Of a stretch of 64,000 nt of DNA, positions 10,908 through 47,800 are shown one piece after another. Both the position numbers and the translations under genes were made by a program. The notes below the pieces were generated by a model. That model saw nothing but the letters and a program-made list of their open reading frames with translations, searched no databases and was not told the origin of the DNA. Source of the DNA: a virus. The stretch is taken from IMG/VR virus record IMGVR_UViG_3300036861_000610, positions 32,001 through 96,000 of that record; one strand, written 5' to 3'. The stretch's first letter is position 1. Each line of letters starts with the position of its first letter.

Positions 10908-10908
10908 G

Positions 10909-10984
10909 AGCCGCAGGGGGGAGTCGAACCCCAAGTTTTACAGGTTTTGCAGACCTGCCGCTGCGCCGGCAACGACCCCACGGC
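10909..10984 (-). tRNA. tRNA-Cys(GCA), 8/4 Sec-like fold
   Basis: 8-bp acceptor, U73, 6-bp D stem with 4-nt loop, 6-bp anticodon stem, 4-bp T stem. Confidence 0.75.
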
Positions 10985-15116: not shown

Positions 15117-15119
15117 TTG

Positions 15120-15193
15120 TGCCCCGTACGGAATTCGAACCCGCGCTCACAGGGCTTTAGAGGCCCCGGCTCTGACCGCTGAGCTAACGAGAC
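15120..15193 (-). tRNA. tRNA with CTA anticodon (amber suppressor candidate)
   Basis: GGGGC-CTCTAAA-GCCCT in a full cloverleaf. Confidence 0.85.
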
Positions 15194-17876: not shown

Positions 17877-17933
17877 AAATGGGGGTAGCAGTAGGCGCCA
17901 TTGCCCCCGCCTTCAAGGTGGAGCGGTGAAGCG

Positions 17934-18015
17934 TGCCCAGGGTGGGGTTCGAACCCACATCCCCGAAGGGACCTTCTTTTAAGGAAGGCATGTCGACCAA
18001 TTGCATCACCTGGGC
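17934..18015 (-). tRNA. tRNA-Leu(TAA)
   Basis: Loop CTTAAAA, variable arm with UUCG loop. Confidence 0.88.
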
Positions 18016-18511: not shown

Positions 18512-18630
18512 AAGGCACCCCAGTTTTTTCAGTCCACGATCATTGCCTCGCGAGCCTGATCGCTTTCCTTTGCGTCAATGTCGTGCGTCCCCCTGGGGTT
18601 AGGGCTTGACGCTGTCCGTGGAACCGGGCG

Positions 18631-18822
18631 TGGACCTGGCGGGATTCGAACCCGCGACCAATGTAGGCGGTGAGGTAACGCGCTTCCCTGCCGAGGGTTG
18701 AAGTTCCTTGTCCTGTGGTCTTCTACACCACGGGCTCGGTCCCGGTGCATCCGATAAACCCTTTTCCGTCGTGACCCGGCTCCGTTTTTCCGGCGCTCTG
18801 ACCCTTCCTGAGCTACAGGCCC
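18631..18822 (-). ncRNA. 192-nt tRNA-Ala-like RNA with anticodon arm replaced by a long hairpin
   Basis: GGGCCTG/CAGGTCC-A (G3:U70), intact D and T arms, insert with GTTACCTC. Confidence 0.75.
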
Positions 18823-18835
18823 ATTGCTCCTTGCG

Positions 18836-18911
18836 TGGATCCGACGGGATTCGAACCCGTACCTCTGCAAACCGTTAGCTGCTTATGCTCTCGCCATTAA
18901 GCTACGGACCC
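18836..18911 (-). ncRNA. tRNA-Ala-like RNA with aberrant anticodon arm
   Basis: GGGTCCG/CGGATCC-A (G3:U70), normal D and T arms. Confidence 0.65.
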
Positions 18912-20230: not shown

Positions 20231-20234
20231 ACTG

Positions 20235-20309
20235 TGCTCACCACGGGATTCGAACCCGTACTGTCGGCCCCCTCAAGACCGTGCCTCCTGCCAGTTGGGC
20301 TAGGTGAGC
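20235..20309 (-). tRNA. tRNA-Leu(GAG), short variable loop
   Basis: CGGTC-TTGAGGG-GGCCG. Confidence 0.82.
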
Positions 20310-20315
20310 ATGCGT

Positions 20316-20519
20316 TTATGGTTTCTTTTCGACGAGAAGGTCGGCAACTCGCTGCACCTGTGTCGCCAGATGCAATAGTGCCCAGACCTGAGCATCCTGA
20401 ATTGCTGCCGCGACACAATTTGGATCTTCATGGTGCCAAGATCGTTTGAGTGAACGTCGTGCTTCTCTTTCGAAGTCTTGAACCGTCTCTACGCGTGCTG
20501 CTTCTTCTTTATGATTCAC
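20316..20519 (-). CDS. hypothetical protein
   Basis: 67-aa helical ORF filling the gap. Confidence 0.5.
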   Translation of the reverse strand: MNHKEEAARVETVQDFEREARRSLKRSWHHEDPNCVAAAIQDAQVWALLHLATQVQRVADLLVEKKP

Positions 20520-20520
20520 G

Positions 20521-20599
20521 TGAAGCTGCCGGGATTCGAACCCGGGTCCTCGACTATTCCGCTGTACGGTTTTGCAGCCAAGTCGTACCCACCAGCCCC
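20521..20599 (-). ncRNA. minimal tmRNA-like RNA (tRNA-like domain only)
   Basis: GGGGCTG, stemless D loop, CGAC...GTCG-AGGAC, T-arm, CAGCTTC-A. Confidence 0.7.
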
Positions 20600-20708
20600 A
20601 TTTTGCTTGGCCTTGTCGCTCAGAGCTTCACAGGCCCTTTGCGCCCACATCCGGCGGTGTTACTTAGTACCGCGCCCACCAGATAGCCAAGCTGGTGGGT
20701 TCCTAGCG

Positions 20709-20780
20709 CACCCGGCCAAGGATTCGAACCTCAACTAACAGAGTCAGAGTCTGTTGTCCTGCCATTTAGACCAGCCGGGT
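20709..20780 (-). tRNA. tRNA-Gln(CTG)
   Basis: Loop CTCTGAC. Confidence 0.9.
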
Positions 20781-20824: not shown

Positions 20825-21274
20825 TCAGCGCTGAAGGGTGGCCCACGTGGGAGCGTAGGGCTTCACCTTCAGGGTCATACCGGCCTCGTTGGGCAGCCGG
20901 TCACCCTTGAGCTGATTGCACGGGTCGCAACACGCGACGGTGTTGACCCAGGTGTTCTTCCCGTCCCGAGAGACGGGGCGGATGTGGTCCACCGTGGTTC
21001 CCTTGGTGCTGCCGCAGTAGCCGCAGCACCGGTTGTCCCGACGGAGGACGCCAGCCCGAGACCAGGTCGGACCGGCCGTGTATCGCCACTTGGTGACGAT
21101 GAAGCGAAGCAATCTGACAGCGGTTGGCCGAGGCCATGCACCGAACTGTATGTCAGGCTCCGCTTCGTGGATCTCTGCTATACCGCGGCAGAGCATCCGG
21201 ATTGCGTGTCTGAGGCTAACCCGGTGCAGTGGACCGAGGTCAGCGTTCAGAACCATAACTGCTGCCCCTTGCAT
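20825..21274 (-). CDS. HNH endonuclease (HNH_5/McrA-like)
   Basis: VLNAD...RD..CGYCG...TVDHIRPVSRDG..W.N.V.CC..CN..K. Confidence 0.9.
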   Translation of the reverse strand: MQGAAVMVLNADLGPLHRVSLRHAIRMLCRGIAEIHEAEPDIQFGAWPRPTAVRLLRFIVTKWRYTAGPTWSRAGVLRRDNRCCGYCGSTKGTTVDHIRPVSRDGKNTWVNTVACCDPCNQLKGDRLPNEAGMTLKVKPYAPTWATLQR

Positions 21275-44800: not shown

Positions 44801-47800
44801 GTCAAGAAGGTCGCCCCGAACGTCATTAAAACGCGGGAGCGTCGGGCCAAGCAGTACGACGAGGCCGTTGGTGACGTTCCCGGCGAGAGGGGCGGCTTAC
44901 TGCGCAGCACCAAGAAGGCCCTCGCAGAAGGTGAGCCGGCCGCCACGGCTAAGGACCGACTCAGCAAGCGGGCCGAAAGCCTCCGGACTCAGGCTGAACT
45001 GCTGCGCGAAAAGGGCGACAGTGACTTCGTCGGAGACGAGATCACCAAGCTGGAGCGCGACGCTGACACCTACCAGCGGGCTGCGGATCTGGCCGGCAAG
45101 AAGGTTCCCACGATCAAGAAGGCCGTCAAGCCTGGCGAAAAGGTCGCTGTCAAGGATCTGACGGACGGCGACGTTGCCATCCTCGACGGGAAGAGGGGCA
45201 CGTTCCGGCAGCCGAGGCCGCGCACCACGTTCATTGAGTTCCCTGACGGCAGTCAGGAGAAGGTGCAGAAGTCCCGCCTCGCACAAATGGTGCGGGACAA
45301 GAAGCTGCAGCTTCTTGGCGGGGATCACCGGGCCAACGCCCCAGAAGGTGGAGCACCTGAAGCTCCAGCCGCGAAGAAGGCCCGGCCGAGCATCAAGCGG
45401 GCGCCAGCTACCGCAGCAGCAGACGCGCCCGGCAACGCCCGGGACCGTAAGCGCCTAGACGCTACTGGCAACCGCGATGCGGTGAAGGCGCGCGCCGACG
45501 AACTGGTCCAGGACGGCAAGACATCGCCGGCCGCATGGCGTCAGGCATTGGATGAGGCAGAGGCGCCGGAGGAGCGTTCTACCCGCCGTCGCCTGACTGG
45601 CCCTGTCGGCGGCGAAGGCAATGTCGACACGAGCCTGGAGTCTCGGCGTGCCCGACGGGCCGTGAGCCGTGGCGTTACTACACCTGGCGGCGAGTCGCAG
45701 GTTGTGCCGCTCAAGCGGGCAGCGAAGAAGGCTACACCTGAGGCAGCCGCACCGGAGAAGCCAGTTATCGAGCGGGCCGCCAAGAAGGTGGCGGCGCCTG
45801 AAGTTGCAGAGCTGGCGAAGGCAACGAAGGCCGCGGCGGCCAAGAAGAGCGTCAAGAAGGCGACCCCTGAGGCGCCGACCAAGGCCGTCAAGAAGGCTGT
45901 GCCGGCGAAGAAGGCGGCACCTGAAGCTCCCGCCGCAGCCAAGAAGGCGCCAGCTAAGGCCATCAAGAAGGCCGCTCCAGAGAAGCCGGTCATCAAACGG
46001 GCAGCGAAGAAGGTCGCCGCCGCTCCGGCCCCGGTCAAAGCAGTCCCGGCCAAGAGGGCACCGATCAAGAAGGCGGCACCGGAGACACCGGCCGCAGCAG
46101 CCGAACGTCGCCTCACGCCACGGCTCAGTGAACTGCAGCAGCGTCAGGTCGAGGGCATGTCCCCGGCCGGTGCCCGTAAGTATTGGGAACGTCGGGCCGA
46201 AGGCAACGACCACGCTGACGCCGTTGCTGGCATCCCGCACCGTCGCCCCATTGGCACACGTAGCGGACCGCTTGCAGGACCGGCCCGGTCCCACGACGCG
46301 CACACCCAGCGCGCTATGGAAGGCCTCGACAAGTTCCAGTCCTCCCTGTCGGAGCCGCAGGCTGCACAGCTAGACGAGACGCTGGGCCTACACAAGACCG
46401 CAGCGGCACGCCGCAAGGCGAAGTTGGACTACTGGGCCAATCGAGGAGCCGGCGATAGCCACACTGCCGCTTTGAAGAAGGTCACGCCAGAAGGGGCTGA
46501 TACACCGAAGGCCGTCCGGCCAACCATTACCCGGGCCGCCGCCAAGAAGGCAGAGGCCGGACCGCCGTCGCGTAAGGCTGTGTCCGAGCTGCGGGCCAGT
46601 GAGCGCAATGCCAAGTACGGACCCGACGGTCCGAGCCACATCGACCTCAGCCGGGTCGGCGAGGGCATCGACCTGGGCGACGACCAGTCGATTCTGGATG
46701 AGGCGCAGGCGAAGCTGAACCGCGGCGAGACTCCGCGCATGGTTGCCAAGGGTCTGGACGACCACGCCAACGGCATCCTCACCCACGGCATCTACGTGCA
46801 CGGCGCGTACCAGGCCCGCGAGAAGACAGGCATTCCCGAGATTGATGCGGGTAAGCCAGCGCGCGCAGCCGAAAACGAAGCCGAGCTGAAGAAGTACCGG
46901 GACCGCAGCGACCGGCTCAAGGAGTTGGCCGAGAAGCTGCGCGGCACCCGGCGCCCGGTCGCCCGTAAGGCAACCACGGCAGCCCCAGCCAAGGCGGCCA
47001 AGGCGGCTCCGATCAAGGCTGCACCCACGAAGAGGGTGGCAGGGCAGCGGCGCGTTTCGCCATGGGATCCGATTCCCGTCTTCCGTGACGGCGGCGAGTC
47101 GGGTCTTCGGGACCGGTTGTCCGAACTGGACACCGAACAGCTCAAGGACATGATCGCTGCCGGCGGCATGGACAGTTCTGGGCTGGCGGCTAAGTGGCGC
47201 AGCCGGGACCGGCTCACAAACTTGATCGTTGACCGGGTTCAAGGTCGGGCGACGAAGGGTCGGGCGTTCCGCCCCGAGCCGGCCACCAAGGTTGCCAAGG
47301 CCCCGGCCCGCAGTATCAAGAAGGCCACTCCTGCCGTCGCGGAAACGCCTGCAGTGAAGAAGGCCGTGAAGGCGGTCAAGAAGACGGCAGCAGAGGTCGC
47401 ACCTGAGGCGCCGGCCAAGAAGACGGCCGCCGCGAAGAAGGCCGCCAGGAAGACCATTCCCGAGAAGTTGCCTACCGGTGCAGCGGACCTGGTTCGTCTC
47501 GGCAAGGAGCACGGCATCCTTGGTGCCGACGAGCTGAGCCCCGAGGCGCTGCGCGACGCTCTGACGGCTAAGCGCAAGGACCCGAACCTGGTCCCGATCG
47601 CCTCGGAGCTGATCCCGCAGGAGATCCGTGACGCGTCGCCAGAAAAGCTCCGTGCCATCGCCAAGGTGGGCGGCTTCGAGCTGGAAGGCGACACAGCTGA
47701 CGAACTGCGCCTGGACCTGATCCGCAAGGCCATCACCAGCGCGGCGCGGGAGCGGCTGGAGGGCCGGTCTGCGAGGAAGAAGGCCGCGCCGGCCAAGGCC

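Follow-up and report, generated by a model that had tools for sequence, protein, structure and literature searches.

A DS6A-type tag-less mini-tmRNA gene in the tRNA array of a soil phage, a candidate competitor of host tmRNA

What is the 79-nt element that lies between two tRNA genes in the long tRNA array of a soil phage, and how might it serve the virus that carries it? Trans-translation is the main ribosome-rescue and protein-tagging pathway of bacteria; several phages either require it or are held back by it. An RNA reduced to the end of tmRNA that SmpB and AlaRS bind would offer a compact, natural means of diverting this pathway. One such candidate is listed by Hudson, Lau and Williams (2014) as 'Mycobacterium phage DS6A (TLD only)' (PMC4131195).

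The window analysed here, 64,000 nt in length, comprises bases 32001–96000 of an IMG/VR virus record of 147,889 bp that is complete by CheckV. ARAGORN predicts 51 tRNA genes in the window, 50 of them on the minus strand at ~1.1–25.2 kb, and Rfam confirms 44 of the window's tRNA genes. The element sits within this array in the same orientation, in the gap between tRNA-Leu (20234–20309) and tRNA-Gln(CUG) (20708–20780, minus strand), where neither ARAGORN nor the Rfam tRNA model makes a call. The tRNA-Gln gene is the upstream neighbour on the same strand, at a distance of 108 nt, and directly upstream of it, still inside the array, lies an HNH endonuclease gene (20825–21274, minus strand; phrog_16726, 91.8 bits). 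Downstream, a 67-aa ORF without a family match (20316–20519, minus strand) has its GTG start 2 nt past the discriminator base of the element. A blastn search of the 401-nt region around the element against a phage collection gave no match, and megablast of 8 kb against plasmids returned nothing beyond short tRNA matches, in Nonomuraea, Tsukamurella and Nocardia. The stretch itself occurs unchanged in one soil sequencing run, probably the one it came from. One related contig matches the window at 20516–20549 only and then diverges; pairwise alignment with another relative (L063) is not collinear around the element, with the downstream tRNA-Leu and tRNA-Thr alignable. Elsewhere in the array, a tRNA with a CUA anticodon, labelled 'Pyl' by ARAGORN (15119–15193, minus strand), would read amber; a tRNA-Cys(GCA) (10908–10984, minus strand) also exceeds the threshold of the Rfam tRNA-Sec model at 52 bits; and a plus-strand 'SeC(tca)' call (17880–17966) overlaps minus-strand tRNAs and is probably an artefact.

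Structure and class of the element

The gene runs on the minus strand of 20521–20599 from the acceptor 5′ end to the discriminator A, and its RNA reads GGGGCUG / GUGGGUACGAC / ... / GGAC / CCGGG-UUCGAAU-CCCGG / CAGCUUC / A, with the 5′ half before the 3′ half in the standard gene order. All motifs named in an earlier, sequence-only reading of the locus (GGGGCTG, a D-loop ending CGAC, GGAC, the T-arm, G3:U70 and CAGCTTC-A) are present on this strand. The acceptor 5′ strand GGGGCUG (RNA 1–7; 20593–20599) is the same as that of Nocardioides tmRNA, and the 3′ strand CAGCUUC with the discriminator A (RNA 72–79; 20521–20528) includes U70 and an unusual U71. The resulting acceptor pairs are G1-C72, G2-U71, G3-U70, G4-C69, C5-G68, U6-A67 and G7-C66, followed by A73. 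In place of a D arm there is a stemless D-loop analogue, GUGGGUAC, which retains the conserved GG and is followed by G16 and A17, the partners in sheared G.A pairs (20583–20592). The loop ends in ACGAC, and the junction formed by ACGAC and GGAC (G.A/A.G plus C-G) opens helix 2a; GAC and GGAC are 32 nt apart.

Helix 2a consists of the 5′ strand CUUGGCUG (RNA 18–25; 20575–20582) and a 3′ strand that is placed by the family alignment described below and is preceded by the AA of the 3′ internal loop (UAGUCGAG; together RNA 42–51; 20549–20558). In the favoured register, G16.A53 and A17.G52 are followed by C18-G51, U19-A50, U20.G49, G21-C48, G22.U47, C23-G46, U24-A45 and G25.U44. In the sequence-only reading, the pairing of CGACU with AGUCG is one register off, as covariation in the family favours C18-G51 and then UUGGCUG/UAGUCGA. 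Past helix 2a, an A-rich internal loop (CAAAA, RNA 26–30, 20570–20574, opposite AA) leads to a 3-bp capping hairpin, CCG-UACAG-CGG (RNA 31–41; 20559–20569). G52, A53 and C54 of the conserved GGAC junction (20546–20548) are positioned by both the Rfam tmRNA and the family alignments, and the T-arm CCGGG-UUCGAAU-CCCGG (RNA 55–71; 20529–20545) has a 5-bp stem and a 7-nt loop. The gene does not encode CCA, the bases after the discriminator being CGU; uncoded CCA is usual in this array, where just three of the 51 tRNAs carry it at or close to their 3′ ends.

Alignment to the Rfam tmRNA model RF00023, which had been suggested as a check, runs end to end (model positions 1–372 of 374), with a deletion of ~296 positions in the centre of the model. 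The element alone scores 41 bits (E 9e-16), and a genome search gives 46 bits (E 2.5e-18), in both cases below the gathering threshold of 47 bits, and by a single bit in the latter. The tRNA-Ala genes of the same phage reach only 24–26 bits in that genome search. The tRNA model RF00005 gives no match to the element at its 29-bit threshold, the D stem and anticodon arm that characterise a tRNA were not found, and ARAGORN makes no call at 20521–20599. In the RF00023 alignment the pseudoknots PK1–PK4 are absent, and the element has no mRNA-like domain, that is, no resume codon, tag ORF or stop codon. The idea of a tRNA-like domain shorn of message and pseudoknots is thus borne out by the Rfam alignment, by the score of 60.8 bits (E ~1e-12) on our family model R1 and by covariation. 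Together, these E values and the R1 score place the match far beyond chance. The element also has the features of the DS6A type, namely a length of 72–95 nt, a helix 2a of ~8 bp, an A-rich loop, a 3-bp hairpin and GGAC, and we regard its identity as a DS6A-type tag-less mini-tmRNA as very nearly certain. For annotation, this means that ARAGORN misses the family and that the member in this window also falls just short of the Rfam tmRNA cut-off. It stands at the low end of the family on both Rfam and R1 scores; 45 of 50 other listed members reach the 47-bit cut-off when scored alone.

A structured RNA family in phages

Relatives were collected from IMG/VR with the pattern CGAC-N15-45-GGAC-NN-GGGTTCRANTCCC, which matches at least 119 loci. 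A filter demanding any 7-bp acceptor stem that closes over the motifs left 56 distinct elements of 72–95 nt among the matches listed, and the listed family comprises at least 57 members among the ~119 viral loci matched with this loose pattern. The filter imposed pairing in the acceptor and T-stem and left helix 2a, the hairpin and the identity of pair 3:70 free; G3:U70 nonetheless occurs in every one of the 56 filtered elements. As CGAC, GGAC and the T-loop were fixed by the search pattern, their invariance is partly by construction, and the independently found DS6A element deviates there. The covariance model R1 was built from nine IMG/VR members of equal length with an explicit structure, and both the window element and DS6A were excluded from it. 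DS6A scores 57.9 bits on R1 and the 57 listed members score 46–102 bits, against 34 bits for the best non-member. An R1 search finds a single copy of the mini-tmRNA in the genome of this phage.

Plain MAFFT alignment followed by RNAalifold recovered the T-arm alone, the 5′ ends being offset, and a model-guided alignment of the 57 members was used instead. In this alignment, which is fitted to R1 and so favours the structure somewhat, standard pairs fill 97.5% of the pair cells, and sliding the partners by 1–3 columns lowers the value to 36–52%. Compensatory changes on both sides occur at 17 of 23 pairs, including seven of the eight in helix 2a and all three in the small hairpin. Pairwise identity among the listed members has a median of 68% and a minimum of 47%, and the helix 2a columns are near-random in sequence across the family. 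Three A columns of the internal loop are 77–84% conserved among the 57, as are the CC/GG of the capping hairpin at 82–88%. The set of nucleotides that confers alanine identity is nearly invariant in the listed members: G1-C72 in 57 of 57, G2-C71 in 56 of 57, and both G3-U70 and A73 in 57 of 57. The single G2:U71 belongs to the window element, which retains G1-C72, G3-U70 and A73; judged from the sequence, this wobble adjoining G3:U70 might weaken alanylation. Overall, the mini-tmRNAs form a diverse family that is selected for structure and has always kept alanine identity among the members listed.

The same loose pattern applied to bacterial genomes gave no locus at the family level among 100 (best score 35.7 bits), and several of these loci are the 3′ ends of normal ssrA genes. 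From these searches, the mini-tmRNA appears to be specific to viruses and widespread in phages. ARAGORN calls none of the 57 listed members a tRNA or a standard tmRNA, and its sole overlap with any of them is a 644-nt permuted 'tmRNA*' in locus L104. That locus and L081 hold 95-nt members in which helix 2a is extended and the internal hairpin enlarged (L104:11235-11329 and L081:11908-12002, both plus strand; R1 46–47 bits); they adjoin WhiB-like genes, which points to actinophages. Fourteen of the 57 members have tRNAs within 1 kb, and the other 43 stand alone, without tRNA arrays. Clustering of neighbouring genes at the 57 listed loci revealed no universal partner and no integrase, the recurrent neighbours being capsid, portal, prohead protease, DnaB-like helicase, primase zinc finger, WhiB and endonuclease VII genes. 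Since only ordinary phage genes recur and an integrase is not among them, we rejected the possibility that the element is an attP remnant of ssrA.

Partners and proposed function

A separate coding piece would make the element one half of a two-piece tmRNA, an outcome that the sequence-only reading had named as fatal to its proposal. We looked for such a piece and found none: the permuted/two-piece tmRNA model RF04321 has no match in the whole phage genome, an RF00023 search of that genome finds no other tmRNA-like match beyond tRNA-like genes, and a frame check of a 195-nt RNA in the array was negative. This RNA (18628–18822, minus strand) has a perfect alanine-type acceptor with G3:U70, a D-arm and a T-arm; an insert of ~136 nt replaces the anticodon arm, and the RNA aligns end to end to RF00023 at 22.6 bits. 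It was rejected as a coding piece, as it contains no tag-like frame and its fold is not above that of shuffled sequences (z = 0.44). Close by, a G3:U70 tRNA gene (18836–18911, minus strand) is assigned a 4-base 'anticodon' (ctaa) by ARAGORN and scores 48 bits on RF00005 and 30 bits on R1; a quadruplet or suppressor-like tRNA is one possibility, an alanine tRNA that does not decode another. Within the family no tag frame is conserved: a GCN frame is closed by a stop in 17 of the 57 listed members, at inconsistent positions, and in the window element the only GCN-type frame is a 2-codon stub.

SmpB is absent from this phage genome and from 50 other member records (eight with a completeness of 90% or more), so any SmpB partner must be that of the host. 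Taking these observations together, we consider it fairly probable that the element is a working gene whose product, a tag-less mini-tmRNA of the DS6A type (a TLD that ends in a short helix 2a and small hairpin), competes with host tmRNA. The proposed route through host SmpB we favour at slightly better than even chances. In such a mechanism, the RNA would share its transcription with the phage tRNA array and be trimmed in the manner of the adjacent tRNAs; it would receive its CCA from a host enzyme and its alanine from host AlaRS, by way of G3:U70 and A73, and would be bound by host SmpB. Neither a PolyA_pol-type CCA enzyme nor Pth was found in the phage genome. The Ala-TLD-SmpB complex would then compete with host tmRNA for SmpB and stalled ribosomes, and the nascent chains and mRNAs of the infection would escape SsrA tagging and tmRNA-coupled decay. 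The maturation, charging and SmpB-binding steps, like the gain for the phage, are inferred.

An SmpB sponge is a reasonable idea and not a new one, having been published as a hypothesis for the DS6A homolog in the passages on that element in PMC4131195 and PMC11915505. According to the same passages, which cite Mao et al. 2009, a TLD RNA like that of DS6A inhibits the tmRNA of E. coli, with titration of SmpB as a possible cause, and charging is dispensable for the inhibition in the cited experiment. A passive sponge would not need the AlaRS identity set, yet that set is invariant, and charging and EF-Tu delivery to stalled ribosomes are therefore probably part of the function. Conversely, if SmpB titration were enough and charging dispensable, the invariance would be left unexplained. 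At the level of sequence, the invariant identity set suggests that the mini-tmRNA is charged with alanine. A further constraint comes from G033, a complete phage genome of 123.6 kb and the only one of the 50 other member records with a full-size tmRNA (77588–77979, plus strand; 392 nt, 94 bits) beside its mini-tmRNA (46486–46567, plus strand; 65 bits). The presence of both forms fits poorly with a simple aim of shutting down trans-translation, and this phage is a natural case well suited to asking if the mini form acts against a phage tmRNA or complements it.

Alternatively, the RNA could rescue ribosomes without tagging. Ala-TLD with SmpB and EF-Tu would enter stalled ribosomes, take over the nascent chain and add one alanine, and hydrolysis of the peptidyl-RNA would then fall to Pth or ArfB-type factors of the host or, in this lineage, to a stand-alone GGQ protein of the phage. 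If so, ribosomes would be recycled and phage proteins left unmarked for proteolysis. This alternative would account for an AlaRS identity set kept in 57 of 57 listed members despite near-random helix sequences, and it finds a parallel in jakobid mitochondria, where CDS-less tmRNAs coexist with SmpB and are thought to be helpful with incomplete mRNAs, as set out in the section of PMC11915505 on these RNAs. The GGQ / RF-1-domain protein (130 aa; G000:C1:20704-21096, plus strand, equivalent to L130:1465-1857, outside the window) scores 56.5 bits on PF00472 and 128.9 bits on phrog_3122 over its full length. An ortholog is encoded by G039 (L131:1345-1773, minus strand), the two proteins having 130–142 aa and PF00472 scores of 56–58 bits. 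The G039 mini-tmRNA shares with that of this phage the rare GGUACGAC D-loop and the same Gln, Leu and Thr tRNA neighbours, which marks G039 as a relative, the closest to this phage. However, the GGQ gene lies ~32 kb from the mini-tmRNA, and its product falls well short of the ArfB equivalog model (25 bits, cut-off 100) and has a C-terminus that looks acidic from its sequence, unlike the basic tail of ArfB. As a family-wide partner it was rejected, being found in only two of 51 member records (this phage and G039) and missing from seven of nine near-complete member genomes. Moreover, canonical release is impossible for an RNA that has neither a resume nor a stop codon, and what the two sources describe for the cited experiment in E. 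coli is inhibition, not rescue. We therefore regard tag-free rescue as possible but doubtful. Still less probable is its virus-encoded version, in which the mini-tmRNA would be the RNA half of the system: host SmpB would act with the alanyl-mini-tmRNA, the phrog_3122 GGQ protein would carry out the hydrolysis, and the A-rich loop and hairpin would serve for docking.

A role outside trans-translation can also be envisaged, with the RNA acting as a decoy for a host defence nuclease that targets tRNAs, as a sink for AlaRS or EF-Tu, or as a partner of a putative phage RNA quality-control set of the Ro60 / Y-RNA type. The array does contain two more alanine-acceptor RNAs that lack a normal anticodon arm (18836–18911 and 18628–18822, described above), and the family also conserves the A-rich loop and small hairpin. 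Conservation in the family nevertheless centres on tmRNA-specific motifs (the GG..UCGAC D-loop, the G.A/A.G junction and GGAC). These motifs make up the SmpB-binding side of the TLD, as established by structural work. Furthermore, the 43 of 57 listed members that stand alone have no tRNA array at hand, and we think it rather improbable that the RNA is a decoy or cofactor of this sort. Finally, a decaying, functionless remnant of tRNA-Ala or tmRNA in this phage is highly improbable: the G2:U71 pair unique among the 57 listed members, the score just below the Rfam tmRNA cut-off and the unremarkable, uninformative MFE fold of the lone sequence (z = –1.21) would suit such a remnant, but none of the four helices is broken, the loop and hairpin typical of the family are in place, the R1 score lies 26 bits above any non-member, and G039 retains a diverged, structurally intact copy beside the same tRNAs.

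Comparison with known tmRNA forms

Among the closest known counterparts of the window element is the RNA of DS6A, which is the only phage example named for CDS-less tmRNA in the part of PMC11915505 that deals with them. We located the DS6A element at JN698994.1 28478-28560 (tmRNA Website tmID 11587), where RF00023 aligns end to end at 43.2 bits. The two RNAs share a length of ~80 nt, a G3:U70 acceptor, a stemless D-loop, helix 2a and a T-arm, and neither has a tag ORF or pseudoknots. The A-rich loop and the CCG/CGG capping hairpin are likewise common to DS6A, the metagenomic elements and the window element. Their scores are similar, at 43.2 bits for DS6A and 46 bits for the window element on RF00023, and at 57.9 and 60.8 bits, respectively, on R1. 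They differ in sequence detail, DS6A having GCAC and a GAG/CUC T-stem and the window element having GGAC, G2:U71 and a shorter D-loop (UACGAC), and in setting: in DS6A, a temperate phage of 60.6 kb, the gene is a solitary copy flanked by protein genes, whereas the window copy is part of a 51-tRNA array in a 148-kb phage.

Compared with bacterial tmRNA, which at ~370 nt has four pseudoknots, a resume codon, a tag ORF and a stop and scores 160–179 bits, the window element is ~80 nt long and carries no message. The ssrA gene of Nocardioides sp. (L194:124-494) nonetheless shares its TLD, including the acceptor 5′ strand GGGGCUG and the GG..CGAC and GGAC junctions, and the first four helix 2a pairs (UUGG/UCGA) are identical; this sequence likeness fits an actinobacterial host, although it is only a hint. 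In engineered TLD RNAs, an acceptor, a T-arm, a D-loop and a short capped helix 2a suffice for SmpB binding and alanylation in vitro. These are laboratory constructs, and they are without the conserved A-rich loop and hairpin of the phage family. Organellar CDS-less tmRNAs, found in jakobid and oomycete mitochondria and, as ~65-bp forms, in Mallomonadaceae plastids, resemble the phage RNA in having a TLD without a tag frame and in their actual or presumed use of SmpB, as far as they are treated in PMC11915505. Unlike the phage form, they are described there as often permuted or two-piece, as products of independent reduction and as presumed to serve the translation of their own genome and not to disturb that of a host. 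The window mini-tmRNA adds a member to this published but thinly described kind of RNA, and its setting is a very large tRNA array.
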